Shown one piece after another: positions 5,661-38,933 of a DNA stretch of 64,000 bases (position 1 is the first letter of the stretch; every line of letters starts with the position of its first letter). The translations under genes and the position numbers were made by a program. Location of the stretch: positions 80,967 through 144,966 of the forward strand of contig JAJEEV010000013.1 in the NCBI GenBank assembly GCA_022820805.1. Direction: 5' to 3'. The notes under the pieces were generated by a model, which was given only the letters and a program-made list of their open reading frames with translations, was not told the origin of the DNA and searched no databases. Origin of the DNA: Acidimicrobiia bacterium (GTDB lineage: Bacteria > Actinomycetota > Acidimicrobiia > Acidimicrobiales > Aldehydirespiratoraceae).

Positions 5661-5732
5661 GTTCTCCGGATCGGACAGGCGCCCAGCTCCTGGATACCGA
5701 ACTGCGAGGGCCCGGCAGGGGCCGCTGCCACT

Positions 5733-8767: not shown

Positions 8768-9262
8768 ATGGCGGCCGCGGACAAACCGTCATTGCGTGAA
8801 CTGGTAGAAGACTTCCTATTCAGGGAAGCTGCCCTTCTGGATGAATGGCGACTTGACGACTGGAGTGAACTCTTCACCGAGGATGCCCGCTACGTAGTTC
8901 CCACCACCGATCTGCCCGAAGGGGATCCCGAGCACGACCTGGTGTTCGTCAATGACGACATGACCCGTTTGCGCGGCCGGGTAAAGCGGCTCAAGAGCCG
9001 GTTTGCTCATCGAGAGTACCCCTCGTCTCGCACTCGCCGGTTCGTCTCCAATGTCCGGGTTGCAGAAACCGACGACGGTGCGGTCTCGGTCGAGTCGAAC
9101 GTTCTGGTGTATCGGTTCCGAAGCGGCGAGGCCGCGCCTTACGTCGGAAGCATCGCGTATGTCCTGCGCTGGGTCGACGGGGACCTGAAGATCGCCCACC
9201 GCCGAGCCGTGCTGGACCTGGAAGACCTGTCCTGGCACGGCGCTCTCAGCATCATCTTCTAG
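8768..9262 (+). CDS. Ring-hydroxylating oxygenase beta subunit (NTF2/SnoaL-like fold)
   Basis: 164 aa directly downstream of the alpha subunit. N-terminal FLFREAALLDEWRLDDWSELFTEDARYVVP is typical of small subunits. Confidence 0.8.
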   Translation: MAAADKPSLRELVEDFLFREAALLDEWRLDDWSELFTEDARYVVPTTDLPEGDPEHDLVFVNDDMTRLRGRVKRLKSRFAHREYPSSRTRRFVSNVRVAETDDGAVSVESNVLVYRFRSGEAAPYVGSIAYVLRWVDGDLKIAHRRAVLDLEDLSWHGALSIIF

Positions 9263-9295: not shown

Positions 9296-10888
9296 GTGGT
9301 CGACAATTGGCCGGTCACCGGCGGCGCAACCGAGATCCCCGAGGGGGTGCTGGCTGCGGCGGCCGCCGGCCAGGCAACGCTTCGCGACAAGCTCGAGGCG
9401 CTGCGCTCGCTGAGCGAGCCGTTCCCCGAGACCGTTGGACCCGCGGCCGGGGACCGTTGGATATCTGACGCCGAGCCACAAGTGGTCGCATCCGGCGCGA
9501 CACCAGCAGCGGATGCGTCACAGGGAGAGGCACCAGGCCGGGCCGGCGATGACCTGGCCGACCTGAGCGCGGCGGCGCTGCTGGAGGGCTACCGGACCGG
9601 GGCGTTCGACCCGATGGAGGTGGTCGACGCCTGCCTGGCCCGGATCGACGGCACCGACGGCGCCATCGGCGCGGTCGTGACCCTCGACCCGACCGCCCGC
9701 CGGCAGGCGGCCCGCTCGACTGAGCGGTGGCACGAAGGAGACGCCGGGCCGCTCGAAGGCGTCCCCGTCGGGGTGAAGGACATCATCGACACCCGCGGGC
9801 TGGCCACCGAGGCCGGGTCGACGCTGTTCGCCGGCAATGTCCCCGCCGCCGATGCCACCGTGGTGGCCCGGCTCCGGGACGCCGGCGCGGTGATCCTGGC
9901 CAAGACCACCACCCCGGAGTTCGCCTTCGGCGACGAGTCCGGCGACGGCGTGGCCAACCCGGGCGCGCCGGGCCGGTGGGCGGGCGGGAGCTCGTCGGGA
10001 TCGGCCGCAGGCCTGGCCGCCGGGCTGTTCCCGGTGGCGCTCGGCAGCGACACCGGCGGATCCATCCGGGTGCCCTCGTCGTACTGCGGTGTGAGCGGGA
10101 TCAAGCCCACGTTCGGGCGGGTGCCCCGCGACGGCGTCTTCGGCGTGTCCTGGACGCTGGACCATGTCGGCCCCATGGCCCGGACGGTCAAGGACCTGGG
10201 TCTGGTGCTGGGCGTCATCGCGGGCGGATGCGACGCCGATCCGTACGCGTCTGGGTGGCCGGTCCCCGACTACGGCCGGACGGCCGGGTCGATCCGGGGG
10301 ACACGCGTCGGCGTGGTCGACGGATGGCTGGCCGAGGGCTCCACCCCGGGCGTGGACGCGGCCCTGGCCGATGCGCTATCGCAGCTGGAAGAGCTCGGCT
10401 GCACCGTCGAGCCGGTGCCGTTCGGCTCCGCCGAACTGGCCGGGATCGTCGCCTGGGTCATCACCGTGGTGGAGTTCGCGGCCCACCACGCCGGCAACAT
10501 GGACCGCATCGGCGAGTTCACCCCCTCGGCGGCCTGCCGGCTGGCGGCCGGCGCCCGCACGAGCGCCTCCGACTACCTGAAGGCGCTGCGGGCCCGGGCT
10601 CTGGTGCAACAGGACCTCGACGCAGCGTTCGAGAAGGTCGACGTGCTGGTCACCGCGGCCACGCCCACCTCGGCCCCCGATCCGGCCACCTTCTTCGACG
10701 ACGGCGACCGGCTGTGGCTCGACAAGGTGGCCCGGACGTTCCTGCCGTTCAACGTGACCGGCCAGCCCGCGCTGGTGCTGCCGGTCGGTCTCGACGAGGA
10801 CCGTCCCGCCGCGGTCCAGGTCGTCGCCCCGCCCCACGCCGACGCCCTGTGCCTGCGGATCGGCACCGCCCTCCAGGGAGCATGCTGA
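9296..10888 (+). CDS. Amidase-signature family amidase (GatA-like)
   Basis: Amidase signature GGSSSGSAAGLAAG, catalytic-Lys region VGVKDIIDTRG, and GSDTGGSIRVPSSYCG. The first ~85 aa of the track ORF have no amidase-like character, so the true start may be downstream. Confidence 0.86.
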   Translation: MVDNWPVTGGATEIPEGVLAAAAAGQATLRDKLEALRSLSEPFPETVGPAAGDRWISDAEPQVVASGATPAADASQGEAPGRAGDDLADLSAAALLEGYRTGAFDPMEVVDACLARIDGTDGAIGAVVTLDPTARRQAARSTERWHEGDAGPLEGVPVGVKDIIDTRGLATEAGSTLFAGNVPAADATVVARLRDAGAVILAKTTTPEFAFGDESGDGVANPGAPGRWAGGSSSGSAAGLAAGLFPVALGSDTGGSIRVPSSYCGVSGIKPTFGRVPRDGVFGVSWTLDHVGPMARTVKDLGLVLGVIAGGCDADPYASGWPVPDYGRTAGSIRGTRVGVVDGWLAEGSTPGVDAALADALSQLEELGCTVEPVPFGSAELAGIVAWVITVVEFAAHHAGNMDRIGEFTPSAACRLAAGARTSASDYLKALRARALVQQDLDAAFEKVDVLVTAATPTSAPDPATFFDDGDRLWLDKVARTFLPFNVTGQPALVLPVGLDEDRPAAVQVVAPPHADALCLRIGTALQGAC

Positions 10889-10950
10889 TCGACAGCAGCA
10901 CGAACCAGACCCGATAGCGGTGATTCTCCAGTATTTTTCATTGATTGATG

Positions 10951-10978
10951 TTGCATCACAGGAACAGCCTGCTACGAT
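10951..10978 (+). promoter_or_regulatory. Candidate sigma-70/SigA-type promoter (-35 TTGCAT, 16-nt spacer, -10 TACGAT)
   Basis: Read directly in an AT-rich island (10921-10980) inside GC-rich DNA. TTGCAT at 10951-10956 and TACGAT at 10973-10978, about 38 nt upstream of the ATG at 11016. Confidence 0.3.
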
Positions 10979-11015
10979 CGCTGCCGTCACGACCGGGCCC
11001 GGAAGGAATGGCGCC

Positions 11016-11216
11016 ATGGAAGCTGCAGGAGTGCCATCGTCCGCCGTCCCGACAGACACGCTGGCCACCACCAAGGACTTGCAGGTTCTCGAGTCGAGAC
11101 TGATCGCCGAACTCCACAAGGAGATCGCAGAGTTGACCAGGACGATGATGAGGGTCGCGTTGATGATGGTCGCCGCTTTCGCGGGAGCGCTGGTCACCGT
11201 CGCGCTCGTCGTGTGA
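11016..11216 (+). CDS. Small coiled-coil protein with C-terminal transmembrane anchor (hypothetical)
   Basis: The ATG at 11016 is in frame with track ORF 10920..11216 and preceded by GGAAGGA. Sequence KDLQVLESRLIAELHKEIAELTRTMM is followed by the hydrophobic tail VALMMVAAFAGALVTVALVV. Confidence 0.5.
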   Translation: MEAAGVPSSAVPTDTLATTKDLQVLESRLIAELHKEIAELTRTMMRVALMMVAAFAGALVTVALVV

Positions 11217-11257
11217 GCAGCGTTCGCAGGAGCCGTGGAGTCGAGAGGAGCAACGCC

Positions 11258-11617
11258 ATGGGAGCGACCCACGTCACCGTCACCGTCCGCAACCCCGCCG
11301 ACCGGGACCGGTCGTGGGAGGGCCTGTTCCTCGTCGACACCGGTACGACCGACAGCCTGGTGCCGCGGCAGCACCTTGAAGCGATCGGTCTGGAACCCCG
11401 AGGCAGCCGCACCTACGAACTGGCTGACGGCAGCGCCGTCCGGTTCGATGTCGCCGGCGCGGACATCGAGTTCATGGGCGAGTACGTCGCGACGACCGTG
11501 CTCTTCGGCGACGACGACACCGAGCCCCTGCTGGGAGTCACTGCGCTGGAGTCGGTTGGCATAGAGGTGGACCCGCGGAACCAGCAACTGAAGCGACGGC
11601 CCGCCGTGCGGCTCTAA
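11258..11617 (+). CDS. Retropepsin-like (clan AA) aspartyl protease family protein
   Basis: ATG at 11258 preceded by GAGAGGAG. DTG active-site motif in LFLVDTGTTDSLVP. The ~119-aa size is typical of single-lobe bacterial retropepsin-like proteins. Confidence 0.72.
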   Translation: MGATHVTVTVRNPADRDRSWEGLFLVDTGTTDSLVPRQHLEAIGLEPRGSRTYELADGSAVRFDVAGADIEFMGEYVATTVLFGDDDTEPLLGVTALESVGIEVDPRNQQLKRRPAVRL

Positions 11618-11771
11618 CTGCTCGACTGGGGTTGGCGTTGATGGCGGCGTTGGACGCGGGAACCCTCCGCAACGAGCCCCGCGCCCGATATGAGGCTGCC
11701 TGAGCCCGCCAACTAGGTTCAGCGGCGCCGGGAACCTCCCCGACGCGCGTCCTCACAGCAAGGAGCAAGCC

Positions 11772-12941
11772 ATGACGGTCCTCACCGACGATCTCCTGGC
11801 CAGCTTCGACGACTCGGTCGGTCCGGTGGACGAGGCCAGGCTGCTGCCGCCGATCCTGTACACGTCGCCGGAGTTCTACGACTTCGAGCGGCGGGCCATA
11901 TTCCAGCGGGAATGGCTCTGCGTGGGCCGGGCCGACCAGCTGAAGGAGCCCGGCGACTACCGCTGCATCACCATCGCGGGCGAGCCCCTCATCGCGGCCC
12001 GGGACGCCGACGGCGAGCTGAGGGTGATGTCGGCGGTGTGCCGGCACCGGGGAATGGTGATCGCGGAGGGTTCGGGCAACTGCCGCCGGTTCACATGCCC
12101 GTACCACCACTGGACCTACGGCCTCGACGGGACGCTGCTCGGGACCCCGGCCATGGACAGGGCCGTGGGATTCGACCGGTCCGAGCATCCGCTGCCCCAG
12201 CTCAAGGTGGAGCTGTGGCAGGGGTTCATCATGGCCAACTTCGATCACGACGCCCGCCCGTTCGGCCCCACCATGACCAAGATCGACGAGATGCTCGTCA
12301 ACTACGGGCTGGAGTCGACGGCCACGCTGGAGGGCAAGACGATCCCGGACCTTCCCTGGAACTGGAAGGTCATGATGGAGAACTTCAACGACCCCTACCA
12401 CGCCAGCCGGCTCCACGGGCCGCTGCAGACGTTCGCACCGAGCCACATGAACGACTTCCTGCCATGGGACGACGACGACGGCGCGGTCGGCCGGATCCAG
12501 CACTTCACCGACATCGACGGATCGTTCAACCCGACCAAGCGCTGCATCCTGCCGGTGTTCGCCAACCTCACCACCGAGCAGCGCAAGCGGGGCGGGTTCG
12601 TGCTCATACCCCCCACCCTGGCCCTGGCCATCGTCCCCGACGAGGTCGCCTACTTCATCATCAGCCCCCAGGGGCCCGGCCACATCACCATCAACATCGG
12701 CTACTGCTTCGAGTCCTCCGCACTGGAGGACCCCATGTTCGAGTACCTGTTCGAAGCGGCCGAGGCCGGCGTCAACAACTTCAACATGCAGGACATCTAC
12801 GCCGACGAGATGACCCAGAAGGGCCTCAACTCGCTGCTGGCTCCCCGGGGCCGCTACTCGTGGCAGGAGGAGACGCTGGTGCAGTTCAACCGCTGGCTGG
12901 TGAGGCGCTACCGCCGGCACTGGCCCTCCAACGGAGCCTGA
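11772..12941 (+). CDS. Rieske non-haem iron oxygenase, alpha-only type (substrate unknown)
   Basis: AAGGAG RBS. Rieske motif CRHRGMVIAEG...CPYHHWTY. Iron site NWKVMMENFNDPYHASRLH. No beta subunit follows. Confidence 0.9.
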   Translation: MTVLTDDLLASFDDSVGPVDEARLLPPILYTSPEFYDFERRAIFQREWLCVGRADQLKEPGDYRCITIAGEPLIAARDADGELRVMSAVCRHRGMVIAEGSGNCRRFTCPYHHWTYGLDGTLLGTPAMDRAVGFDRSEHPLPQLKVELWQGFIMANFDHDARPFGPTMTKIDEMLVNYGLESTATLEGKTIPDLPWNWKVMMENFNDPYHASRLHGPLQTFAPSHMNDFLPWDDDDGAVGRIQHFTDIDGSFNPTKRCILPVFANLTTEQRKRGGFVLIPPTLALAIVPDEVAYFIISPQGPGHITINIGYCFESSALEDPMFEYLFEAAEAGVNNFNMQDIYADEMTQKGLNSLLAPRGRYSWQEETLVQFNRWLVRRYRRHWPSNGA

Positions 12942-12973
12942 GCGCAGCCGGACGACCAGGGAGCACCCCGAGC

Positions 12974-13651
12974 ATGGACCCGGACCGCACCATCACCTTC
13001 GACCCTGGCGAGAACCAGCCCATGGACCGCCAGTTCATGCTGTCGCAGCTGGTGGTTCCCCGGCCCATCGCCATGGTCTCGACCCGCAGCCCCGACGGGG
13101 TCGCCAACATCGCTCCCATGAGCTACTACCTGCCCATAACCGGCGACCCCATGCTGCTGGGAATCACCATGGGCCTGCGCGAGGACGGGCAGCTCAAGCA
13201 CACCTACCTCAACGCCATGGCCAGCGGCGACTTCGTCGTCAACGTCACCAGCGAGGCGTTCCGCGACGACATCGAGACCGTGGCCATGGAGTGCCCGGGC
13301 AACGTCGACGAGTTCGACCTGGCGGGGTGGACCACGGTTCCGGCCACCAAGGTGAGTTCGCCCGCCATCGGGGAGGCCCTGGCCCGCCTGGAGTGCGTGG
13401 TGCACAAGGTGGTGGACCTGGGGACGCCGGACCGGGTGTTCGGGGAAGTCCACCTCGTGATCGGCGAGGTGGTGTGGGTGGCCTACGACTCGGCCATCTG
13501 CGGCCCCAATGGCCGCATCGACCCGCTGCGCCTGGGCGCGATCGCACGCCTGGGCCTGCGCACCTTCCTGCGCACCGTGGACGAGGGCGCCTATTCCCTG
13601 CAGCGCACGCCATGGGCCGACTTCGTCGCGGCCGACGGCTCGACCAGCTAG
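12974..13651 (+). CDS. Flavin reductase-like FMN-binding (split-barrel) protein
   Basis: ATG at 12974 (AGGGAG RBS) in frame with the 3' part of track ORF 11912..13651. VVPRPIAMVSTRSPDGVANIAPMSYY is the typical flavin-reductase-domain core. Confidence 0.8.
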   Translation: MDPDRTITFDPGENQPMDRQFMLSQLVVPRPIAMVSTRSPDGVANIAPMSYYLPITGDPMLLGITMGLREDGQLKHTYLNAMASGDFVVNVTSEAFRDDIETVAMECPGNVDEFDLAGWTTVPATKVSSPAIGEALARLECVVHKVVDLGTPDRVFGEVHLVIGEVVWVAYDSAICGPNGRIDPLRLGAIARLGLRTFLRTVDEGAYSLQRTPWADFVAADGSTS

Positions 13652-13717
13652 CGGTCCCCGGCGAACTAGCTGATGGCGAGGGCTGCTGGGTAGCGTCACC
13701 GTCAGGCTCGGAGAATC

Positions 13718-14712
<995 letters not shown>

Positions 14713-14716
<4 letters not shown>

Positions 14717-15756
14717 CCGCGGCCGACACCGCCGCCCCGAAGCGGGCGGCCCGCACTCCCCGCAAGGCCCGGGACCGGGTCCGCAAGGTCGCCTTCACCC
14801 GGGCCCTCAACGATGCGCTGGACCTGGCCATGTCCAAGCACGACGAGATGTTCGTCATCGGCGAGGACATCGCCGAGATGGGCGGCGACTTCGGCGTCAC
14901 CAAGGGTCTGCTGGCCAAGTACGGGCCCGAGCGGGTGCGAGACACGCCCCTGTCGGAGGCGGCCATCATCGGCACCTGCGCGGGCGCGGCCATGGTCGGC
15001 ATGCGCCCGGTGGCCGAGATCATGTTCGCCGACTTCATCGCCGAGTGCTACGACCAGGTCGTCAACAACGTGGCCAAGATGCACTACATGTTCGACGGGC
15101 AGTTCAAGGCGCCGCTGGTGATCCGCACCGCCTGCGGGGGCGGGTTCGGCGGCGGGCCGCACCACTCCCAGAGCGTGGAGGGCTGGTTCCTGAACGTGCC
15201 CGGCATCGTGATCGTGGCCCCGTCCAACCCGGTCGACGCCAAGGGCCTGCTGCTGGCATCGATCGACAGCGACGACCCGGTCCTGTTCCTGGAGCACAAG
15301 GCCCTGTACCGCAGCCGGGCCGAGGTGCCCCCCGAGTACTACACCACCCCGCTGGGGCAGGCTGCCATCGCCCGCGAGGGCAGCGACGTGACCGTGGTCG
15401 CGGCCATGCGGATGGTGCCCATGGCGCTGGAGGCCGCCGAAGAGGCCGCCGACGCCGGCGTCGCGGTGGAGGTCGTGGACCTCAGGACCATCCGGCCCTA
15501 CGACGCCGAGACGGTGCTGGCCTCGGCAGCCAAGACCGGCCGGGTGGTGGTGGCCAACGAGGCGCCCAAGATCGGCGGGCTCGGCGCCGAGCTCAGCGCT
15601 CGCATCAGCGAGGAGTGCTTCAGCGACCTGAAGGGACCGGTGGTGCGCGTCGACGGCCTCGACACCCCCATCCCCTTCTCGGTGCCCCTGGAGGACGTGG
15701 TCCTGCCCGACGCGCAGGACATCGCGGCCGCCGTCAGCACCGCAGCCCAGTACTGA
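14713..15756 (+). CDS. 2-oxoacid/acetoin dehydrogenase E1 beta subunit
   Basis: The ATG at 14713 overlaps the E1-alpha stop (ATGA). VFVIGEDIAEMGGDFGVTKGLLAKYGPERVRDTPLSEAAIIG and a C-terminal transketolase-like domain. The 5' part of track ORF 14461.. is out of context. Confidence 0.92.
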
Positions 15757-15787
15757 CCCAGAACACGAAGACCATTAGGAGGGCCAG

Positions 15788-16057
15788 ATGGCCACCGATG
15801 TGATCCTGCCCAAGTGGGGCCTGACCATGGAGGACGGCACCGTCGTCGCGTGGTATGTGGACGAGGGCGACCATGTAGTGGAGGGCGAAGTGATCGCCGA
15901 AGTGGAGACCGAGAAGGTGGAGAACGAGCTGGAAGCACCCTGCGCCGGAGTGGTGGCCCGGATACTCGTGGACGAGGATGAGACCGTCGATGTGGGCACC
16001 GTGCTGGCGGTGATCGCCGGCAACGAGGCCGAGGCCGCAGCCATCGCTGGGGGTTGA
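15788..16057 (+). CDS. Free-standing lipoyl-attachment domain protein (E2 N-terminal domain only)
   Basis: 89 aa, AGGAGGG RBS. Lipoyl-lysine context VIAEVETEKVENELEAP (Lys codon 15914-15916). The stop at 16055-16057 is immediately overlapped by the next gene. No acyltransferase core follows. Confidence 0.85.
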   Translation: MATDVILPKWGLTMEDGTVVAWYVDEGDHVVEGEVIAEVETEKVENELEAPCAGVVARILVDEDETVDVGTVLAVIAGNEAEAAAIAGG

Positions 16058-16836
16058 TGATGAGACCTGATCGCTTCACAGGCGACACCGTGTTGATCAC
16101 CGGCTCGTCGCGGGGGATCGGTGCGGCCACGGCCCAGGCCTTCGCGGCCGAGGGAGCCAAGGTGGCGGTCAACTACCGCAGCGACGCCGCGGGCGCGGCG
16201 GCCACCCACCAGGCCATCGTCGACGCCGGCGGGGTCGCCGAGGTGTTCCAGGCCGACATCGGAAACGAGGCCGACGTGGCCCGTCTCGCCCGGCAGGTGG
16301 AGGACTCGCTGGGCCCGGTGTCGATCCTAGTCAACAACGCCGCCCTCATCGACCGGTCGTCGATGTCTGACCTGTCGCTGGAGGCGTTCGACACCGTCTG
16401 GCAGGCCAATGTGAGAGGGCTGTTCCAGCTCAGCCAGCTGGTGGCGTCCGGCATGGTGGAGCGGGGCCGGGGAGCCATCGTGAACCTCAGCTCGATCCTG
16501 GCCCGGCTGGGAGTGGCCAACCGCTGCGCCTACATCGCGTCCAAGGGCGCGGTGGAGGGCCTGACCCGGGCCATGGCGCTGGAACTGGGCCCCAGGGGCG
16601 TGCGGGTCAACGCGGTGGCCCCGGGCCTGATCGCCACCGAGGCGCTGCTGGCCGGGATGCCCGACCCTGAGGTGCAGACCGCGATCCAGCGTCACATCCC
16701 CGAGGGCCGGTTCGGCCGGCCCTCCGAGATCACCGCGGCCATCCTGTTCGCGGCGTCGCCGGAGGCCAGCTACGTCAACGGCTCCGTCATCGCGGTGGAC
16801 GCCGCCCTCGGCGCCCGCGAGTCCACCCCCGCCTGA
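16057..16836 (+). CDS. Short-chain dehydrogenase/reductase (FabG / butanediol-dehydrogenase-like)
   Basis: TGSSRGIG cofactor motif, NNAAL, and catalytic YIASKGAVEGLTRAMA. The track start is TTG at 16054; ATGs at 16057/16060 are more likely. Confidence 0.9.
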   Translation: MMRPDRFTGDTVLITGSSRGIGAATAQAFAAEGAKVAVNYRSDAAGAAATHQAIVDAGGVAEVFQADIGNEADVARLARQVEDSLGPVSILVNNAALIDRSSMSDLSLEAFDTVWQANVRGLFQLSQLVASGMVERGRGAIVNLSSILARLGVANRCAYIASKGAVEGLTRAMALELGPRGVRVNAVAPGLIATEALLAGMPDPEVQTAIQRHIPEGRFGRPSEITAAILFAASPEASYVNGSVIAVDAALGARESTPA

Positions 16837-16868
16837 GGGGGCTCCGGCATGCGAGTCAGGAGCCGACC

Positions 16869-17828
16869 ATGATCAGCATCAACCGTGAAGCCATGAAGAC
16901 GGTGCGGCTCATCCTGGATGAGGCCGACGCACTGGGCGTGACCGTCGACCGGCTCGACAACGGCAGCACCGTCATCGACATGGGCCTGCACGCCAAGGGA
17001 GGCTGGCGGGCCGCCCAGCTCTACACCCTGGCCAGCCTGGGCGGGCTCGGCACCGTGAGCTACGAGCCCTTCGAGCTGGCTGGACGGATGCTCACCGCGG
17101 TGCGGGTGATGATCGATCACCCCATCGAGGGCTGCGTGGCGTCGCAGATCGCAGGATGGCGCCTGCAAGCCCCCGGCACCGAGCACGCCGCCATCCTCGC
17201 CGGGCCGGGCCGGGCCCTGAACCGCGACAGCCTGGACCACTACTTCGAGTGGATCGACTACCGCGACGAGCATCACGAGGCGGTGGTGGCCATCCAGACC
17301 TCCGAGCCGGTCCCGGTGGAGATGGCCGACATGATCGCGTCGTCGTGCCGGATCGATCCCGGCGACCTCTACGTGCTGTTCGCCCCCAACCGCAGCCTGG
17401 TGACCGCGGTGCAGGTGGCGGCCCGGATCGTGGAGCAGTCCCTGCACCGGCTGGCCGAGGAGGGCATGGACCTGCGGGGACTGCGCTACGCGTACGGCCT
17501 GGGCGTGGTGCCGCCGCTGGTGGACGACGACCTGGTCTCGATGGGCCGCATCAACGACAGCCTCCTGTACGGGGGGATCTCCAACGTCACCGTGGACGGC
17601 GACGACGCCCAGTGCGCGGAGATCGTGGAGCGGGTGGTGTCGGTGGCCTGCGAGGCCTACGGCCGCCCGTTCATCGAGATCTACGAGGACGCCGGGCGGG
17701 ACTTCTACGAGATTCCCATTGAGCTGCACTCCCCGGCCGAGATCCACCTCACCAACCTGGCCAGCGGAAACACCTTCAGCGCCGGACACATCAACCACGA
17801 GGTGCTGACCGCCTCATTCTTCAGCTAA
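16869..17828 (+). CDS. mch: Methenyltetrahydromethanopterin cyclohydrolase (Mch) family protein
   Basis: AGGAG RBS. End-to-end resemblance to remembered archaeal/methylotroph Mch. The N-terminus ISINREAMKTVRLILDEADALGVTVDRLDNGSTVIDMG matches the pattern VSVN.EA...V..MIE.A.EL...V..L.NG.TVID.G. The C-terminus matches as well: GRPFIEIYEDAGRDFYEIP...NLASGNTFSAG.IN.E.L. ~320 aa, as for Mch. Confidence 0.82.
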   Translation: MISINREAMKTVRLILDEADALGVTVDRLDNGSTVIDMGLHAKGGWRAAQLYTLASLGGLGTVSYEPFELAGRMLTAVRVMIDHPIEGCVASQIAGWRLQAPGTEHAAILAGPGRALNRDSLDHYFEWIDYRDEHHEAVVAIQTSEPVPVEMADMIASSCRIDPGDLYVLFAPNRSLVTAVQVAARIVEQSLHRLAEEGMDLRGLRYAYGLGVVPPLVDDDLVSMGRINDSLLYGGISNVTVDGDDAQCAEIVERVVSVACEAYGRPFIEIYEDAGRDFYEIPIELHSPAEIHLTNLASGNTFSAGHINHEVLTASFFS

Positions 17829-17857
17829 TGGTTGAGGATGCATTCAAAAGCATTGTG

Positions 17858-17886
17858 TTGCATTGAACTGTGTCACAGCTTAGGGT
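17858..17886 (+). promoter_or_regulatory. Candidate promoter (-35 TTGCAT, 17-nt spacer, -10 TAGGGT) driving a possibly leaderless small gene
   Basis: TTGCAT at 17858-17863 and TAGGGT at 17881-17886. The GTG at 17893 lies 7 nt after the -10. It sits in an AT-rich island containing GCATT at 17840, 17850 and 17860 (exact 10-bp phasing). Confidence 0.3.
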
Positions 17887-17892
17887 GGGGGC

Positions 17893-18231
17893 GTGGCAGC
17901 ACCGGAAGCGCTCAGCGTCCCAGGCGACAGCACCGCTGCCGGGCCGGAGGTCGTCGTGCGGGCCGCTTCGCAACGGATGCCGCAGCTCATCCCCATCGCC
18001 CAGTTGGTCGCCGTCGTGCTCGGAGTGTTCGCCATCATCTGGCACCAGCAACAGACCACCGACAATCTGCGCACCGAGCTGATGGCCGAGATTGGTGGCG
18101 TCGAGACCGGGCTGGGCGCCGAGATCACCTCACTGCGGGCTGAGGTGGCCGAGAACGGGCAGCGGCTGGCCCGCATCGAGGGGTTCCTCGGGATCGGGGT
18201 CCCCGACGTTTCGCCACCATCGAATCCGTGA
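17893..18231 (+). CDS. Small membrane-anchored coiled-coil protein (hypothetical)
   Basis: Track ORF. Hydrophobic segment LIPIAQLVAVVLGVFAIIW followed by LRTELMAEIGGVETGLGAEITSLRAEVAENGQRLARIEGFLG. Its stop overlaps the next gene's start (GTGA). The alternative start is the ATG at 17977. Confidence 0.5.
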   Translation: MAAPEALSVPGDSTAAGPEVVVRAASQRMPQLIPIAQLVAVVLGVFAIIWHQQQTTDNLRTELMAEIGGVETGLGAEITSLRAEVAENGQRLARIEGFLGIGVPDVSPPSNP

Positions 18232-18950
18232 CACTGCAGCACCCTCTCGTGGCGGTCGTTACTGGCGCCGGGTCGGGGATCGGACTTGCCTGCGCGGGGG
18301 CGCTGGCGACTCGGGGCGCTCACTGCGTACTGGTGGGGCGCCGGCAGGACAGGCTTGAGGCCGCCGCGGCCGCGCTGGACAGCCCCGCGGCCGTTCTGCC
18401 CGCCGACCTGGCCGAGCCGAACGAGGCCGGGCGGATCGTTGCCGAGACGCTGGCCGCGTACGGCCGTATCGACGTGATCGTGCACAGCGCCGGCGTCTTC
18501 GAGAAAGCGCACGTGCCGGAGGTGACCGAGGACCACTGGCAGCGCGTCATGGACGTCAACCTCGGAGCGGTGATGGCCCTCACCGGCGCCGCCTGGGAAC
18601 CGCTGGCCGCGTCCAGCGGGCAGATCGTGCTCATAAGCAGCGTCGCCGCGGTGCAGGCCTTCGAGGGCAACGCGGCCTACGCGGCGTCGAAGGGCGGGCT
18701 GAACGCGCTGGGGGAGGTGCTGCGGCTGGAGGGGCGCGACAGGGGCATCAGGGTGATCACGCTGTCCCCCGCTCAGATCGACACGGCGCTCTGGGATGAC
18801 AAGGCCCCCGACCGCGTCAGGGCCCGTATGATGCCCGCCACCGGGGTGGGCGAACTGGTGGCCGACCTGGTGGGAACCGACCGGCGCATCGACATCGCCC
18901 CCGTCGTCATACGGCCGGTTCGCGACCCTTGGGTAGAGCCCGAGCCATGA
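18228..18950 (+). CDS. Short-chain dehydrogenase/reductase
   Basis: VAVVTGAGSGIGLA Rossmann motif and catalytic YAASKGGLNALGEVLRLE. Confidence 0.88.
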   Translation: MTLQHPLVAVVTGAGSGIGLACAGALATRGAHCVLVGRRQDRLEAAAAALDSPAAVLPADLAEPNEAGRIVAETLAAYGRIDVIVHSAGVFEKAHVPEVTEDHWQRVMDVNLGAVMALTGAAWEPLAASSGQIVLISSVAAVQAFEGNAAYAASKGGLNALGEVLRLEGRDRGIRVITLSPAQIDTALWDDKAPDRVRARMMPATGVGELVADLVGTDRRIDIAPVVIRPVRDPWVEPEP

Positions 18951-18984
18951 GCACACCGAGCGACCTGCCGGCGGTGACACTGCC

Positions 18985-19995
18985 ATGAGCACCGACCAGA
19001 TTGCTCTGGGACTGCAGATCGTCCCGACCATGGGCTCGGCCGAGTTGATCGACACGATCGTGGTGGCCGAGGAATTGGGCTACTCGTACTGCATGGTGGC
19101 CGACGAGGGCTTGATGCTCGACGTGTACGCGGTGCTGGGCGCCGCGGCCCGCATCACCAGCACAATCCGGCTGGGGGCGGTCACCAACCCCTACACCCGC
19201 CACCCGGCCGCCACCGCGGCCGCCCTGGCCACCGTCGACGAGATGAGCGGGGGCCGGGCCTTCGTGACCCTGGTGGCGGGCGGCACCATGGTGCTGCACC
19301 CCATGGGACTCCAGCGGTCGGCGCCCCTGGCCCTGATGGCCGACACCATCACCGCCCTGCGGCTGCTGTGGCGGGGGGAGCCGGTCACCTGGCAGGGACG
19401 GCGGCTGTCGCTGGAAGGGGCCCAGCTCACCACCGGCACCCACTCGATCCCGATCTGGGTCGCGGCCCGGGGCGAGAGGATGCTGGAGCTGGCCGGCACC
19501 CACGCCGACGGCCTGATGCTGATGGTCAAGTCCGATCTCGGCGACGCCTTCGGCATCGCCGAGCAGGCCCGGCAGGCGGCCGGGACGCAGGCCGGTGATG
19601 GACGCGGGGGCGCCCCGCTCATGCGGGCCTACCTCGACCGGCTGGCGTACCGGCCCGAGATGATCGAGGAGGCCAAGCACCTCTACGGCTACGCCATCAT
19701 GGACAGCCCGCCCCGGATCCTCAGGAACCTGGGCCTCGACGACGATGAGATCGCCGGCTTGAAGCACGCCTTCGCCCAGGGCGGCCCCGAGGCTGTGGGC
19801 CAGCTCGTGACCGACGAGCTGGTGGCCTCCTACCAGATCGCGGGCACTCCCGCCGAGTGCCGCGACCAGCTGGAGCACCTGATCGGCGCGCACCGGCTCG
19901 ACGCCTTCTTCGTGAACATCATCTCGCCGGGCCTGCCCGCCAACCGTGATCTGCTCACCGAGGTGAAGGCGATAGCCGCGGAAGCCTTGCGATAA
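18985..19995 (+). CDS. Luciferase-like monooxygenase (LLM) class oxidoreductase, F420-dependent methylene-H4MPT reductase (Mer)-like
   Basis: N-terminal TIM-barrel LLM pattern LGLQIVP...AEELGYSYCMVADE. VTNPYTRHPAATAAALATVDEMSGGRA closely matches the Mer-type NPYTRHP segment as remembered from archaeal Mer. That segment is shared by many actinobacterial F420 LLMs. Confidence 0.85.
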   Translation: MSTDQIALGLQIVPTMGSAELIDTIVVAEELGYSYCMVADEGLMLDVYAVLGAAARITSTIRLGAVTNPYTRHPAATAAALATVDEMSGGRAFVTLVAGGTMVLHPMGLQRSAPLALMADTITALRLLWRGEPVTWQGRRLSLEGAQLTTGTHSIPIWVAARGERMLELAGTHADGLMLMVKSDLGDAFGIAEQARQAAGTQAGDGRGGAPLMRAYLDRLAYRPEMIEEAKHLYGYAIMDSPPRILRNLGLDDDEIAGLKHAFAQGGPEAVGQLVTDELVASYQIAGTPAECRDQLEHLIGAHRLDAFFVNIISPGLPANRDLLTEVKAIAAEALR

Positions 19996-20002
19996 TCCTG
20001 GC

Positions 20003-20020
20003 GCGGCGGCACACCGCCGC
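20003..20020. terminator. GC hairpin between convergent genes (possible bidirectional terminator)
   Basis: gcggcgg (20003-20009) / caca loop / ccgccgc (20014-20020), between the stops at 19995 (+) and 20034 (-). No U-tract. Confidence 0.3.
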
Positions 20021-20033
20021 ACTCAGCGCTGCG

Positions 20034-21356
20034 TCATGAGGTGGTCAGCGAGGCGAGGTCCGACGCTTCGTGGTCGGCCGCGGCTGTGCCGAAGCGGCGC
20101 ACCCGGATGTCGGCCTGCGCCTGGTGGCCGGCGAAGTTCTCTATCGCGCACAGCCGGCTGCAGTACTCCCCGATGAGGGCGCTCGACGCCGGATCGGTGA
20201 CCCGCTGGTAGGTCACCGTCTTGAGGAACTTCCCCACCCACAGGCCGCCCGTGTAGCGAGCCGCGCCCTGCGTCGGGAGGGTGTGGTTGGTGCCGATCAC
20301 CTTGTCGCCGTAGGAGACATTGGTCATCGGACCCAGGAACAGGGCGCCGTAGTTCGTCAGGTTGTCGAGGAAGTAGTCGTCGTCGCCGGTCATCACCGAC
20401 ACATGCTCGAACGCCAACTCGTCAGCGAGGCGGAGCATCTCGGCCTTGTCCTCGCACACGATGACCCGCCCGTAGTCGGCCCACGACACGGACGCGACGT
20501 CGGCGGTCGGCAGGGTCTCGAGCTGGCGGTTGACCTCGGCGATCGTGTCCGCCGCCAACTGCCGTGACGTGGTGAGCAGGACGGCGGGTGACGTCGGCCC
20601 GTGCTCCGCCTGGCCCAGCAGGTCGGTGGCGCAGATCTCGCCGTCGGCGCTGTCGTCCGCGATCAGCAGCGTCTCGGTCGGGCCTGCGAGCAGGTCGATG
20701 CCCACCCGGCCGTAGAGCTGCCGCTTGGCCTCGGCCACGAACGCATTGCCCGGACCGACCAGCACGTCCACCCGGTCGACGAACTCGGTCCCCAGCGCCA
20801 GCGAGGCAACCGCCTGGACCCCGCCGAGCAGGTAGATCTCGTCCGCGCCGGCGAGGTGCATGGCGGCGACCGTCTCGGCCGGCACGCCGCTGTTGATCGG
20901 CGGAGTGCATGCGGCCACTCGCGGCACGCCCGCGACCTTGGCCGTGAGCACGCTCATGTGAGCCGACGCAACCATCGGGTAGCGACCTCCCGGGACGTAG
21001 GCCCCCACCGACGAGACGGGCAGGTGCTTGTGTCCCAGCGTCACACCCGGCAGCGTCTCCACTTCGACTTCTCGCATCGAGTCGAGCTGGACCTGGGCGA
21101 AGTTGCGGATCTGGGCCTGCGCGAAGCGGATGTCGTCCAGGGTTCCGGGGTCGACGCCCGCCACGATCCCGTCGATCTGCTCCGCGCTCAGCCGGAACTC
21201 CTCCGGCGCCCAGTCGTCGAACTCCTTCGACAGCTCCCGCACGGCCCGCTCGCCGCGCTCGGAGACGTCCGCGAGCAGGGTGCTCACCCGTTCGGCCAGC
21301 GCGGCGTCCGCTCCGTGAGCGCCCTTGCGGGCGGCTTCCTTCAATACCTCAGCCAT
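20034..21356 (-). CDS. Histidinol dehydrogenase family NAD-dependent dehydrogenase (HisD-like, not in a his operon)
   Basis: The ATG at 21356 gives [12 protein letters not shown]. Family motifs [28 protein letters not shown] and [15 protein letters not shown]. The track ORF extends 23 codons further upstream. Confidence 0.87.
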
Positions 21357-21541
21357 CGGGTCCTCCGTGTCGCCCTGCCCGTCCGGCCCGGAGCTCGCGA
21401 CGGCTCCGCTCCGGCAAATGAACAAGCGGTCAAGTATGCCGCCGCCGGGAGTTGATCCTTGCTCCCTGCGGCCGCTCGCCCCACCCGTGCCGGATCAGCC
21501 GACGTGACATCGGCGGCCCGGCGGCGGCAAGCTGTTCAGTC

Positions 21542-22414
21542 ATGAACGCTGCGGCAAGGCGCCCGACCCCGCGACCGGTGTTCGACCGGCCCACGGTCCT
21601 TCCTGCGTCGGACAGAGGCCGCCACGTCTGGGGCGACTCCGAGTCGGGCTTCGTGCTCGACCGCGTCCACCTGTCGTCGGAGATGCTGCACGTGCTGGAG
21701 TTCTCCATGCCACCCGGGGGGCGGTTCGGGCACTCCCCCGACAACCCCACGATCTTCGCGGCCGACGAGCTGCTGTACGTGCTCGAAGGGGTGCTGATGC
21801 TCAGTGACCCCTCGACCGGCGAGACCCAGAGGGCGGTTGCCGGCGAGGCGGTCTTCTTCCGCCGGGACACCTGGCACCACGGCCGGGCCGCCGGTGACGA
21901 GGGTGTGCGGGTGCTGGAGTTCTTCTCGCCCACTCCCGCCACCGGGGCCTCCAGCGCCTACGGCCGGACCCAGCCCTACCTGGAGCGCACCTCCACCGTC
22001 GACCAGCGGCTGCTCGGCTCCTGGCCCATGGCTTCCGGGCAGATCGAGCATCGCCTCACGCCGGTGCGGGAGCACGATGTGGCGTGGGCGACCCGGGGAG
22101 CACTCGAACTCGGGTTCCTGGCCGCCACCGAGCACCTGACCGTGCTGCGATGCCACCTTCGAGCCGGGGCCGCGTCCGCCGAGGAGCAGCATCCCGGAGA
22201 GGAGTTCGTGCTGCTGCTCTCGGGAAGCCTGGTGGTCATGACGCCCGCGGCTGAGGACGCCAACTGCCTGTACCTGGACGCGGGCGACGCCGCCGTGCTG
22301 CCGCCGGGCACGCAGCACTCGTACCTGTCGGCCGGCGACAGCCAGGCCGTCTGGCTGTGCGGGATCGGGCCCGGCTGGACCAGCACCGGCGACATCGGTC
22401 CCGATCCCGGCTGA
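21542..22414 (+). CDS. Bicupin domain protein
   Basis: ATG at 21542 within track ORF 21452..22414. Two cupin-like halves: LEFSMPPGGRFGHS...LYVLEGVLML and HLRAGAASAEEQHPGEEFVLLLSGSLVV. Confidence 0.68.
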   Translation: MNAAARRPTPRPVFDRPTVLPASDRGRHVWGDSESGFVLDRVHLSSEMLHVLEFSMPPGGRFGHSPDNPTIFAADELLYVLEGVLMLSDPSTGETQRAVAGEAVFFRRDTWHHGRAAGDEGVRVLEFFSPTPATGASSAYGRTQPYLERTSTVDQRLLGSWPMASGQIEHRLTPVREHDVAWATRGALELGFLAATEHLTVLRCHLRAGAASAEEQHPGEEFVLLLSGSLVVMTPAAEDANCLYLDAGDAAVLPPGTQHSYLSAGDSQAVWLCGIGPGWTSTGDIGPDPG

Positions 22415-33796: not shown

Positions 33797-33815
33797 ATGC
33801 AGCTCGGTGAGGATC

Positions 33816-34751: not shown

Positions 34752-34754
34752 CGA

Positions 34755-35909: not shown

Positions 35910-35927
35910 GCTGACACGCGACCGGAA

Positions 35928-37541: not shown

Positions 37542-37586
37542 GCTGGTCCCGGGTCCGACTGCGGGGTGTGGAGCTCTAGGGAGCGC

Positions 37587-38873: not shown

Positions 38874-38899
38874 GTTCCCTCCAGTGTGGAACCGCTTGC

Positions 38900-38933
38900 G
38901 CCCCGGCGACTCTGCGCCGGGGCCTGTATACAG
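38900..38933. promoter_or_regulatory. 9-bp GC hairpin plus adjacent 10-bp perfect palindrome in a divergent intergenic region
   Basis: gccccggcg (38900-38908) / actctg / cgccggggc (38915-38923), followed by ctgtatacag (38924-38933). It lies 27 nt upstream of the BMP SBP start codon on the minus strand. Confidence 0.3.

Follow-up and report, generated by a model that had tools for sequence, protein, structure and literature searches.

The 64,000-nt stretch of acidimicrobial DNA analysed here (the window) encodes a homologue of methenyl-H4MPT cyclohydrolase (Mch; below, MCH for the window protein and its relatives) and, close to it, a luciferase-like oxidoreductase (LLM) resembling the F420-dependent enzyme Mer. 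Do these proteins belong to a methanogen-type one-carbon pathway in a bacterium, or do they serve another reaction? The initial annotation had offered both readings: a cryptic pterin-linked C1 route for formaldehyde that TMAO demethylation, encoded 35 kb away, would release, or an Mch fold put to use in a new cyclohydrolase reaction. Our evidence does not support the first and favours the second; both proteins belong to one widely conserved, previously uncharacterised operon and are not a fragment of an H4MPT or methanogenic C1 route.

The MCH operon and its surroundings

The operon and adjacent genes are arranged as follows:

11772..12941, + strand: Rieske [2Fe-2S] non-haem oxygenase, alpha subunit only (PF00355 and PF00848)
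12974..13651, + strand: flavin reductase (PF01613 Flavin_Reduct, E=2.3e-22)
13718..14716, + strand: E1alpha of a TPP-dependent dehydrogenase, pyruvate/acetoin-dehydrogenase type (PF00676, E=1.5e-55)
14713..15756, + strand: E1beta (PF02779 and PF02780)
15788..16057, + strand: free-standing lipoyl carrier, 89 aa (PF00364, E=2.4e-21; ETEK lipoyl-lysine motif)
16054..16836, + strand: SDR1, classical NAD(P)-dependent short-chain dehydrogenase (PF13561/PF00106)
16869..17828, + strand: Mch-family cyclohydrolase of a non-canonical, E1-linked clade, 319 aa (PF02289, TIGR03120, fold match)
17893..18231, + strand: small variable ORF, 112 aa, one predicted membrane helix and a coiled coil, non-core
18228..18950, + strand: SDR2, second short-chain dehydrogenase (PF00106, E=1.1e-46)
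18985..19995, + strand: Mer-related F420-class luciferase-like oxidoreductase without the Mer catalytic Glu, 336 aa (PF00296)
20034-21425, - strand: HisD-like gene, convergent, between the LLM and bicupin genes
21452..22414, + strand: bicupin protein, two Cupin_2 domains

The E1beta start codon overlaps the E1alpha stop by 4 nt. E1alpha scores 251 bits with TIGR03182, below the cut-off, and its nearest solved structure is human PDH E1alpha; E1beta passes NF006667 (PDH E1beta; 326.9 versus a cut-off of 321). The best NCBIfam match of the lipoyl carrier is the lipoyl part of acetoin-dehydrogenase E2; neither an E3-binding nor an acyltransferase domain was found in its 89 residues, and the window encodes neither an E2 catalytic domain nor E3. 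PDB matches of SDR1 are generic (FabG- or glucose-dehydrogenase-like), and in NCBIfam both SDRs match BudC-like models. As initially described, the LLM lies three genes downstream of MCH, with the 112-aa ORF and SDR2 in between; the former has no Pfam or NCBIfam match above threshold, and in sister genomes it is absent, single or duplicated (45-73% identity).

The genes at either end are less constant. The best NCBIfam match of the Rieske protein is the glycine-betaine monooxygenase GbcA (120 bits versus a cut-off of 670), which makes it only a distant relative. The Rieske gene is a genus-level add-on upstream of the operon core, being found 5' of it in 23 of 57 related loci, all from close relatives. 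The flavin reductase gene, which starts 33 nt past it, probably encodes the electron donor of the oxygenase. The bicupin, for which NCBIfam gave no match, is possibly an accessory operon member: in four related loci (L004, L008, L018, L033) its gene is directly 3' of the LLM gene on the same strand.

An Mch-family protein outside the canonical clade

The proposed resemblance of the 319-aa protein to Mch along its whole length is borne out by profile searches, which place it inside the family: residues 3-317 match positions 1-311 of the 311 in PF02289 (E=1e-100), and the TIGR03120 equivalog model gives 275.3 bits against a cut-off of 228.8. Mch of M. kandleri (1QLM) is matched over the full length by phmmer (6.5e-72), and the AlphaFold model (pLDDT 84) aligns with this structure with a TM score of 0.90 at 41% identity. 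With 41-45% identity to archaeal Mch, the protein is a bacterial relative of the methanogen one-carbon enzyme.

The active site gives a divided picture. The catalytic pair is kept as Arg186/Glu189 (Arg183/Glu186 in A. fulgidus) and is present in 129 of 135 MCH family members, but five residues common to all seven canonical anchors that we compared, S109, E140, G176, D276 and F280, are replaced by A111, Q143, T179, P283 and H287. Glu140 is Gln in 95% of the E1-linked MCH sequences. In the family tree the window MCH was placed outside the clade that contains every canonical anchor. Mch of Halorubrum, a presumed folate user, groups with canonical Mch and retains Glu140, Ser109, Asp276 and Phe280, positions at which the E1-linked clade is altered.

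A Mer-related reductase without the catalytic glutamate

All best NCBIfam and PDB matches of the LLM are to Mer (8QQ8/8QPL, about 2e-38), and the reported Mer-type NPYTRHP segment was found, within the string VTNPYTRHPA. The protein nevertheless missed both equivalog cut-offs (NF002619, 178.6 bits versus 276; TIGR03555, 161 versus 348.7) and by these profiles does not pass as a member of the Mer family. Relative to jMer, Gln11, Gly100 and Tyr236 stand in place of Glu6, Asp96 and Phe233. Among 60 LLM orthologues the first position is Gln in 56 and His in 4, the second Gly in all 60 and the third Tyr in 58, so that every orthologue lacks both Glu6 and Asp96. The glutamate at position 6 is catalytic and common to Mer, Mfr and MetF, and the E6Q variant keeps only 0.4% of kcat. 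The loss of Glu6 and Asp96 fits direct C=N reduction better than the opening of a methylene-pterin ring.

One-carbon genes and the H4MPT question

The tmm, tdm and serine-cycle genes attributed to the window were all found:

54047-56440: tdm (DUF1989 and GCV_T)
60876-62222: tmm (FMO)

Malate thiokinase-, malyl-CoA lyase- and class-V aminotransferase-like genes accompany them. Together with the TIGR03120 score of MCH and the Mer matches of the LLM, these genes speak for a canonical H4MPT/F420 pathway which would take up methylamine- or TMAO-derived C1 units and have its remaining genes elsewhere in the genome. However, the reported lack of companions was confirmed, with 0 matches to Fae, Ftr/Fhc, Mtd and H4MPT-biosynthesis families among roughly 55 window ORFs (a few small ORFs lay outside the scan), and H4MPT-pathway genes are likewise missing from the fully annotated related loci. 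The formaldehyde reading is unsupported because the E1/lipoyl/SDR operon is conserved in about 80 genomes of two phyla with no H4MPT companions, because the LLM is below the Mer cut-offs and has Glu6 and Asp96 replaced in all orthologues, because MCH falls outside the canonical clade and has lost the five anchor residues, and because the window Tdm bears a folate-binding GCV_T domain of its own. Moreover, Halanaerobiales, Spirochaetes and Anaerolineales, which have members of the same MCH group, are not known as H4MPT makers. We thus disfavour this pathway and consider it extremely unlikely.

Conservation of the operon across phyla

The order E1alpha-E1beta-lipoyl carrier-SDR-MCH-(SDR)-LLM is syntenic in about 80 genomes (the sample comprised 80 genome loci) of Acidimicrobiia, including Ca. 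Aldehydirespirator, and Chloroflexota. SDR1 is the tightest partner of MCH, lying immediately upstream in 73 of 75 loci; E1alpha is upstream in 63, E1beta present in 62 and the lipoyl gene in 59 of 65 loci. Downstream of MCH, SDR2 occurs within 4 kb in 43 of 62 loci and an LLM orthologue in 46 of 62, and in Chloroflexota two types of Mer-like LLM are found in this position. More distant MCH clades (30-43% identity) in Halanaerobiales, Spirochaetales, a second acidimicrobial clade and three metagenome contigs also adjoin E1 and/or E2 and an SDR or DAO-type dehydrogenase. The anaerobic versions carry E3 and LplA, and in Halanaerobiales B12-binding, URO-D and Pterin_bind genes adjoin the module. 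The SDRs and the E1/lipoyl unit beside MCH, which had been treated as mere flanking context, are indeed present but are the defining partners of this MCH clade.

Could the operon be a common dehydrogenase system of the acetoin/2,3-butanediol or pyruvate type, with MCH and LLM co-located for an unrelated or accessory function? The best matches of E1alpha/beta and the lipoyl carrier, the BudC-like SDRs and the E3 and LplA genes of the anaerobic versions, as in classical aco operons, agree with this. Yet MCH and E1/E2 are co-located in at least four phyla through many rearrangements of gene order, a persistence hard to explain other than by a shared pathway, and what recurs beside them are genes for amidohydrolases, XDH and nucleobase transporters rather than for sugar or diol utilisation. 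We know of no classical aco operon that contains MCH, and regard this explanation as quite unlikely.

The small lipoyl protein invites another comparison, with the glycine cleavage system. In such a glyoxylate cleavage system E1 would decarboxylate glyoxylate and leave the formyl group on the lipoyl protein, as the aminomethyl group is carried on H-protein; MCH would join it to a tetrahydropterin to give methenyl-pterin, which SDR and LLM would reduce. The free 89-aa carrier without an E2 core in the window's genus, the malate synthase G gene found behind the LLM gene at four of the related loci (L001, L026, L029, L032), the serine-cycle and glyoxylate genes of the window and a single metagenomic protein in which lipoyl and E3-binding domains are fused to MCH are all in keeping with it. 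However, in 26 of 65 loci the lipoyl gene is followed by a gene of its own for the E2 catalytic domain, its DHRFIDG motif intact; these loci include most Chloroflexota and deeper Acidimicrobiia and none of the window's genus, in which the loss of the E2 gene therefore looks derived. The fusion is a singleton with the catalytic Glu changed to Gly, and since its nearest relatives encode a normal E2 with MCH as a distinct protein behind it, the fusion looks like an in-frame deletion. The LLM also lacks the Glu needed for methylene-pterin reduction, and we know of no E1 with glyoxylate as its physiological substrate. This system is very unlikely.

A proposed link to purine degradation

In Chloroflexota the MCH operon stands amid homologues of XdhD, SsnA, HyuA, YgeY and YgeW, the enzyme types which define the reductive urate pathway (PMC12507026). 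The cluster encodes an XdhD-type Mo enzyme (TIGR03313, 735 bits), a HyuA-type dihydropyrimidinase (520 bits versus a cut-off of 393), a YgeY-family hydrolase (392 versus 321), an SsnA-like amidohydrolase, a YgeW/OTCase-like transferase and a Bmp nucleoside-type ABC transporter; a YgeX-type PALP gene was not found in the two fully annotated Chloroflexota loci. For Chloroflexota, a 2025 paper describes a putative F420 luciferase-family reductase in place of YgfK/UacX and proposes it as the dearomatising reductase, with no mention of MCH or E1/E2 for those clusters (PMC12507026). For the window's genus, the link rests on relatives and on an NCS2 xanthine-permease-like gene between E1beta and the lipoyl gene in six sister genomes, since the window contains no SsnA, HyuA, YgeY or YgeW homologue. 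The characterised pathway needs no cyclohydrolase, as C8 leaves as a carbamoyl group; an MCH step thus requires a C8-H or C2-H variant substrate or a methylated purinium.

On this evidence the operon suggests that purine-like compounds are broken down by way of a ring-opening step not described before. Our preferred explanation, which we hold tentatively, is that MCH is a new cyclohydrolase of Mch fold within a catabolic module dependent on TPP and lipoyl, acting on what we infer to be a purine-like N-heterocycle. From the family assignments, conserved residues and synteny observed here we infer every chemical step of the following scheme. The substrate would be taken up by a nucleobase- or nucleoside-type transporter and, in the window's genus, demethylated or hydroxylated by the Rieske oxygenase and flavin reductase. 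The LLM would dearomatise the ring by hydride transfer to one of its C=N bonds, after which the Arg/Glu pair of MCH would direct water onto the resulting cyclic formamidine (an imidazoline-type N-CH=N carbon), opening the ring to an N-formyl amine. One or both SDRs may oxidise the opened chain, giving a 2-oxo acid or alpha-hydroxyketone to be decarboxylated or cleaved by E1; the acyl group would pass to the lipoyl carrier and then to CoA via an E2 core, operon-encoded in many lineages and here presumably supplied in trans.

Against this explanation count the lack of urate-pathway hydrolase and transferase genes, of an E2 catalytic domain and of E3 in the window, and a characterised pathway that needs no cyclohydrolase; the identity to archaeal Mch and the intact catalytic pair would also suit a methenyl-pterin substrate. 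A folate-linked C1 role, though rather unlikely, is a live rival. SDR and MCH would act as a split FolD (methylene- to methenyl- to formyl-tetrahydrofolate) and the LLM as an F420-dependent methylene-folate reductase, with C1 units coming from the adjacent demethylase or from purine ring cleavage and E1/lipoyl taking the leftover carbon skeleton. PTR1, FolM, QDPR and SPR are pterin reductases of the SDR family, SDR-MCH adjacency is the tightest link in the operon, and demethylation genes adjoin the module in two lineages (the Rieske/flavin reductase pair and the Halanaerobiales genes). Haloarchaea without H4MPT keep Mch and Mer homologues, HVO_2573 and HVO_1937, which are proposed to use tetrahydrofolate (PMC8305020). 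On the other hand, Gln or His replaces in the LLM the glutamate shared by Mer, Mfr and MetF, and the Mch of Halorubrum retains the residues altered in the E1-linked clade. Neither formiminotransferase, cyclodeaminase nor formate-THF ligase was found in the annotated loci, and the folate role would leave the MCH-E1/E2 tie in every examined lineage unexplained.

Comparison with known systems

Mch of M. kandleri (1QLM) and A. fulgidus (4GVQ/4GVR/4GVS) has the same full-length fold as the window MCH (Foldseek TM 0.87-0.90, 33-41% identity), which differs in the five replaced residues and in having E1, lipoyl and SDR partners instead of fae, fhc, mtd or H4MPT-biosynthesis genes. We also know of no H4MPT makers in its host phyla. 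Mer of M. jannaschii (8QPL/8QPM; PMC11094777) shares the TIM-barrel LLM fold, the VTNPYxRxPA segment and the F420 class with the window LLM, which is set apart by its sub-cut-off scores and its replaced Glu6, Asp96 and Phe233. The haloarchaeal proteins show that Mch and Mer homologues can occur where H4MPT is lacking, but their locus tags are distant from each other and no adjoining E1/lipoyl system is described (PMC8305020); Halorubrum Mch is canonical in clade and residues, unlike the window MCH.

The reductive uric-acid (2,8-dioxopurine) cluster XdhD-YgfK/UacX-SsnA-HyuA-YgeW/UacY-YgeY-YgeX (PMC12507026) shares a gene cluster with the Chloroflexota MCH operon, with an LLM standing in for YgfK/UacX as published. 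The pathway itself, which ends with YgeX, includes no cyclohydrolase, SDR or 2-oxoacid dehydrogenase, and the window module is in turn without the hydrolase and transferase genes of the cluster. AcoABCL acetoin dehydrogenase and the PDH E1alpha/beta-E2-E3 complex have the same heterotetramer-type E1alpha/beta and provide the best profile matches for the lipoyl domain, and aco clusters have BudC alongside as the window E1 has an SDR. In the window, however, the lipoyl domain stands alone as a protein of 89 aa, E2 core and E3 being absent, and the E1/lipoyl system of the MCH operon is invariably tied to an Mch-fold enzyme.

The MCH operon

The MCH gene lies in a run of ten plus-strand genes at 11772-19995 of the window, with intergenic gaps of at most 66 nt and three gene pairs that overlap by 4 nt.

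Genes of the MCH operon in the window (coordinates, strand, product)
11772-12941, +, Rieske oxygenase
12974-13651, +, flavin reductase
13718-14716, +, E1alpha (PF00676)
14713-15756, +, E1beta (PF02779 and PF02780)
15788-16057, +, 89-aa lipoyl protein (PF00364; 'ETEK' motif with the lipoyl-lysine)
16054-16836, +, SDR1
16869-17828, +, MCH (PF02289, TIGR03120)
17893-18231, +, 112-aa membrane/coiled-coil ORF
18228-18950, +, SDR2
18985-19995, +, LLM

Among the parts of a 2-oxoacid or acetoin dehydrogenase, E1alpha, E1beta and a lipoyl domain with its lipoyl-lysine are all present in the operon; an E2 acyltransferase core (2-oxoacid_dh) domain was not found in the window, nor an E3 gene near the operon. 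Compared with solved structures, SDR1 and E1alpha gave generic FabG-like and PDH-like matches only. A HisD-like gene on the minus strand is convergent with the operon. Scanning 10800-21600 for consensus promoters and terminators gave no match. The window has a G+C content of about 70%, and its closest relatives are MAGs of Acidimicrobiia that carry the name Candidatus Aldehydirespirator and in many cases come from sponges; the MCH of one related locus (L004) is 97% identical to that of the window.

Several further genes surround the operon. The 112-aa ORF and an ORF at 11016-11216 (+) are both small and each contain a single hydrophobic helix and a stretch resembling a coiled coil; the former is present in zero, one or two/three copies between MCH and SDR2 in sister genomes (L005, L006, L021). 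A partial type I polyketide synthase with methyltransferase, ER, KR, ACP and KS domains enters from the window edge (3-5333, +) and is followed by a 4'-phosphopantetheinyl transferase (5661-6443, +). Just upstream of the operon are the alpha and beta subunits of a benzoate/anthranilate-type ring-hydroxylating dioxygenase (7413-8741 and 8768-9262, +) and an AtzE-like amidase (9296-10888, +). For the operon module, with which it is not conserved, the amidase might serve as a deformylase or deamidase. Between the amidase and the Rieske gene, an ORF at 11258-11617 (+) carries a 'DTGT' motif like that of retropepsin-like aspartic proteases.

MCH as a divergent member of the Mch family

The initial annotation had described MCH as a full-length homologue of methenyl-H4MPT cyclohydrolase (Mch), which our comparisons bear out. 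PF02289 matches with 337 bits (cut-off 25; E=1e-100) from profile position 1 to 311 of 311, and the equivalog model TIGR03120 with 275.3 bits against a cut-off of 228.8. The protein aligns over its full length with Mch of M. kandleri, M. ruminantium and A. fulgidus, and its AlphaFold model (pLDDT 84) reaches a Foldseek TM score of 0.90 to 1QLM. A check of the active-site residues, which the annotation had proposed, gave a divided picture. The catalytic pair is kept, Arg186/Glu189 in the 'ARIVEQ' segment of MCH being equivalent to A. fulgidus Arg183/Glu186, and is present in 129 of 135 aligned family members. A 2012 structural study of Mch reportedly established the catalytic role of Arg183/Glu186 (A. 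fulgidus numbering); 4GVR and 4GVS we take to be the E186Q variant of this enzyme. On the other hand, five residues that all seven canonical anchors share and at least 85% of the canonical sequences keep, Ser109, Glu140, Gly176, Asp276 and Phe280, are replaced in MCH by Ala111, Gln143, Thr179, Pro283 and His287. The contrast is sharpest at the Glu140 position: 7/7 anchors and 90% of the canonical sequences have Glu here, whereas 95% of the E1-linked sequences, and 100% of those in the window clade, have Gln. Speculatively, this Glu-to-Gln change might mirror a change from a 2-amino to a 2-oxo group in the substrate. Of the 38 columns in which at least 80% of the canonical sequences agree, nine are different in the window clade.

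A neighbour-joining tree of 135 sequences places the window clade and all other MCHs found beside E1/E2 outside one large canonical clade, which holds the archaeal crystal structures, the Mch of Methanoplanus and Halorubrum, and the GXGXG-MCH and ATP-grasp-MCH fusions typical of the H4MPT pathway. The Mch of Halorubrum has been argued to use folate, since haloarchaea lack H4MPT (PMC8305020). Because Halorubrum Mch keeps all canonical residues, a plain switch from H4MPT to folate does not explain the residue changes in MCH.

LLM as a relative of Mer

The best matches of the window LLM are, by a wide margin, Mer models and Mer structures, and its twelve top NCBIfam matches are all F420-class LLM families. 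In this respect its description as Mer-like in the initial annotation holds; it falls short of both Mer equivalog cut-offs, however (TIGR03555, 161.1 vs 348.7; NF002619, 178.6 vs 276), and lacks key residues of the enzyme. In jMer, Glu6 is the key catalytic residue, common to MetF and Mfr, and the E6Q variant retains 0.4% of kcat; the pterin site is lined by Asp96, Phe233 and a fourth position (PMC11094777). The equivalents of Glu6, Asp96 and Phe233 in the window LLM are Gln11, Gly100 and Tyr236. The Glu position holds Gln in 56, His in four and Glu in none of 60 LLM orthologues from related loci, and the Asp position holds Gly in 60/60. PMC11094777 further names Gln178 as a residue of the jMer pterin/F420 site, for which 8QQ8 as aligned has Asn178; Glu6 (as Gln) and Phe233 map correctly. 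On these grounds, neither MCH nor LLM is likely to be a true Mch or Mer.

The canonical H4MPT reading is now unlikely. As the initial annotation had stated, genes of the H4MPT pathway are not in the window: families for Fae, Ftr/Fhc, Mtd and H4MPT biosynthesis found no match among about 55 scanned ORFs, and the annotated loci L001, L002 and L087 likewise contain no fae, fhc/ftr, mtd or H4MPT-biosynthesis genes. The tdm, tmm and serine-cycle-type genes that it had reported were recovered at 54-62 kb. A folate-linked C1 module, with SDR and MCH as a split FolD and LLM as a methylene-folate reductase, is consistent with some of the evidence, namely the haloarchaeal precedent and the demethylases in the neighbourhood; it leaves the link to E1 unexplained, and both an LLM without the Glu and residue changes that do not occur in Halorubrum Mch speak against it.

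Genomic context across loci

The genomic context is the main result of this analysis. A protein search returned 365 MCH relatives, the named ones from Acidimicrobiia, Ilumatobacteraceae and Caldilineaceae, and a scan with one genome per species gave 80 loci in Acidimicrobiia and Chloroflexota.

Partners of MCH, counted in those loci with enough flanking sequence (position, gene, loci)
Directly upstream, SDR1, 73/75
Upstream, E1alpha, 63/65
Upstream, E1beta, 62/65
Upstream, lipoyl protein, 59/65
Upstream, separate E2 catalytic domain with intact DHRFIDG motif, 26/65
Upstream, Rieske oxygenase with flavin reductase (Aldehydirespirator group only), 23/57
Downstream, orthologous LLM, 46/62
Downstream, SDR2, 43/62

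In an exhaustive profile search, the next full-length relatives of MCH were merely 36-43% identical. Seven loci of these distant clades and the second MCH paralogue of the Chloroflexota locus L087 were inspected, and the same partners were found each time.

Gene order or content of distant-clade loci
L084 (Halanaerobiales): two SDR-MCH pairs around E1alpha-E1beta-E2-LplA-GntR-E3
L091 (Spirochaetales): amidohydrolase-E3-GntR-SDR-E1alpha-E1beta-E2-MCH, with an XDH-like enzyme downstream
L086 (second Acidimicrobiia clade): MCH-E1alpha-E1beta-E2-OTCase-M20, with UbiD/UbiX and a cytosine-deaminase-like amidohydrolase nearby
L088, L089, L085: E1 and/or E2; SsnA-, HyuA- and HutI-like amidohydrolases; a UacX-like DHO_dh-Fer4 protein; a four-subunit DAO/sarcosine-oxidase-like dehydrogenase replacing the SDR; a FolB-cyclase (formamidase-type) fusion; ECF or Bmp transporters; XRE-cupin regulators

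An E3 is encoded in L084, L089 and L091, and the neighbours of the L084 genes include B12-binding, URO-D and Pterin_bind methyltransferase genes and a deaminase-type amidohydrolase. That these genes share a location but no pathway is difficult to square with a conservation that spans four phyla. In the literature that we searched, we found no account of this operon, nor of Mch-family proteins linked with 2-oxoacid dehydrogenases or purine catabolism.

The free lipoyl protein and a malate synthase G gene downstream in four loci make a glycine-cleavage-like 'glyoxylate cleavage' system an attractive alternative. Its main support, however, was a lipoyl-E3-binding-MCH fusion protein (P0191; locus L090, 6478-7848), which is a metagenomic singleton with a dead catalytic site, the catalytic Glu being Gly. 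In Spirochaete relatives, a normal E2 precedes a separate MCH; the fusion thus seems to have arisen by an in-frame deletion. We therefore no longer regard it as strong evidence of a physical E1-lipoyl-MCH complex. That the Mch-fold enzyme is part of a lipoyl complex, in which the E1-loaded lipoyl arm would bring a C1 (formyl) or acyl group to the active site of MCH or MCH would channel an unstable ring-opened product to E1, seems to us very improbable. If it is true, the 2-oxoacid dehydrogenases and the glycine cleavage system would be joined by a third kind of lipoyl multienzyme system, one that links a 2-oxo acid (e.g. glyoxylate) or a purine fragment directly to pterin-type or amidine chemistry.

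Some additional features of these loci were recorded. A regulator with an XRE-type HTH and a Cupin_2 domain is encoded in the window at 49938-50618 (+), 30 kb from MCH and adjoining an ammonium transporter and tdm; regulators of the same architecture lie directly beside MCH in L002, L086, L087, L088 and L089. The second, divergent MCH paralogue of Chloroflexota (about 35% identical; L087, 17338-20959; L064, about 12100-15700) lies a few kb from the main operon, with an aldo-keto reductase on one side and an FGGY sugar kinase on the other, and FGGY kinases recur near the operon in deeper Acidimicrobiia, too. An Rfam scan of the window and seven related loci detected no riboswitch; the sole match was a group II intron remnant in L091 (domain 5, 13178-13255) by a reverse-transcriptase fragment and an IS110 transposase, downstream of the MCH operon.

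Proposed link to purine catabolism

The MCH operon of Chloroflexota shares its cluster with, or adjoins, five purine-related genes.

Purine-related genes of the Chloroflexota cluster
XdhD-type molybdenum enzyme with FAD subunit (TIGR03313, 735 bits)
HyuA-type dihydropyrimidinase (TIGR02033, 520 vs cut-off 393)
SsnA-like amidohydrolase
YgeY-family hydrolase (NF009555, 392 vs cut-off 321)
YgeW/OTCase-like carbamoyltransferase, with a Bmp-type ABC transporter

Such enzymes have been established as the reductive uric acid pathway, in which XdhD reduces urate to 2,8-dioxopurine, YgfK or UacX dearomatises the ring, ring opening falls to SsnA and HyuA for both rings, YgeW/UacY and YgeY lead to 2,3-diaminopropionate, and YgeX forms pyruvate (PMC12507026). 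The description of the Chloroflexota variant in the same paper, with a putative F420 luciferase-family reductase in place of YgfK/UacX, fits the position of LLM in the MCH operons. Downstream of MCH two types of LLM occur, the Caldilinea type with 52-54% and the Anaerolineales type with 28% identity to the window LLM. The two fully annotated Chloroflexota loci contain no PALP/YgeX gene.

In the window's own genus, uricolytic genes are not adjacent to the operon: with tblastn, homologues of SsnA, HyuA, YgeY and YgeW/UacY were not found co-located in the window, the only related gene being a distant XDH-family gene (34% identity) about 20 kb off. Six sister genomes carry an NCS2 gene on the opposite strand between the E1beta and lipoyl genes (L005, 6964-8850, -; L006, L009, L011, L024, L055). 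It matches PF00860 with 154 bits, its best NCBIfam match is the xanthine permease pbuX (below cut-off), and it has an extra C-terminal domain of about 150 aa. Between 14 and 28 kb downstream of the operon, the window itself encodes a Bmp-type ABC transporter, an XDH-family enzyme and a hydantoinase/caprolactamase-like pair. They belong to a second gene set of N-heterocycle type at 32792-48218, which also includes a 2OG-Fe(II) oxygenase and an acyl-CoA/AMP ligase.

Main genes of the second N-heterocycle-type set in the window
33816-38939, -, Bmp-type ABC transporter
39321-42956, XDH-family Mo enzyme fused to FAD subunit
44500-48218, -, caprolactamase/hydantoinase A/B-like pair

Proposed mechanism

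From family memberships, kept and lost residues, operon structure, conservation and partners we infer the following chemical steps, which we put forward as a reasoned proposal. LLM would catalyze an F420H2-dependent reduction of a ring C=N bond; the absence of the Glu with which Mer opens the methylene bridge fits this role. MCH might then use its Arg/Glu pair to hydrate a cyclic formamidine carbon, so that a ring of imidazoline or imidazolinium type would be opened and yield an N-formyl amine. The SDR, or in one lineage a DAO-type dehydrogenase instead, may oxidize the product to a 2-oxo acid or alpha-hydroxyketone, and E1/lipoyl/E2 would convert this to an acyl-CoA, as a functional substitute for the YgeX ending of the published pathway. 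N-methylated forms may be handled as well, as suggested by the Rieske oxygenase in the window and the corrinoid methyltransferases of Halanaerobiales. Creatinine, ectoine, thiamine, ribityl-lumazine, N-methyl-diaminopropionate and pterin/biopterin side-chain cleavage were considered by reasoning only, and none fits all partners better than a purine-like substrate.

Implications and comparison with known systems

Mch is regarded as a single-function family and serves as a metagenomic marker for H4MPT-linked C1 metabolism. A large, coherent Mch branch tied to TPP/lipoyl dehydrogenases and nucleobase-catabolic genes would represent a second function for this fold, which would gain a new hydrolytic ring-opening reaction. 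The E1-linked branch was found in Acidimicrobiia, Chloroflexota, Halanaerobiales and Spirochaetes, which to our knowledge are not known as H4MPT makers. The initial annotation had weighed a cryptic pterin-linked C1 pathway against recruitment of the Mch fold to a new reaction; the finding itself is real, but the first of these explanations is unlikely to be the right one. If our proposal is true, the labels 'mch' and 'mer' over-call methylotrophy or methanogenesis-like potential in these bacteria, which are abundant in marine, sponge-associated, wastewater and sediment habitats, and such annotations in these phyla should not be taken as H4MPT-linked C1 metabolism. With small, soluble proteins and candidate substrates that can be purchased or synthesized, the idea is directly testable.

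We rate as new both the functional branch of the Mch fold and the extension of the reductive purine pathway, which is undescribed. PMC12507026 and its companion preprint mention no cyclohydrolase, SDR or lipoyl enzyme in the reductive urate pathway. There, C8 leaves as a carbamoyl group and no cyclohydrolase is needed; the substrate of an MCH step would thus have to be an alkylated purinium or carry C8 or C2 in unoxidised form. By this addition the reductive purine pathway described in 2025 would acquire a branch that depends on F420, a cyclohydrolase and a lipoyl enzyme and does not end with YgeX.
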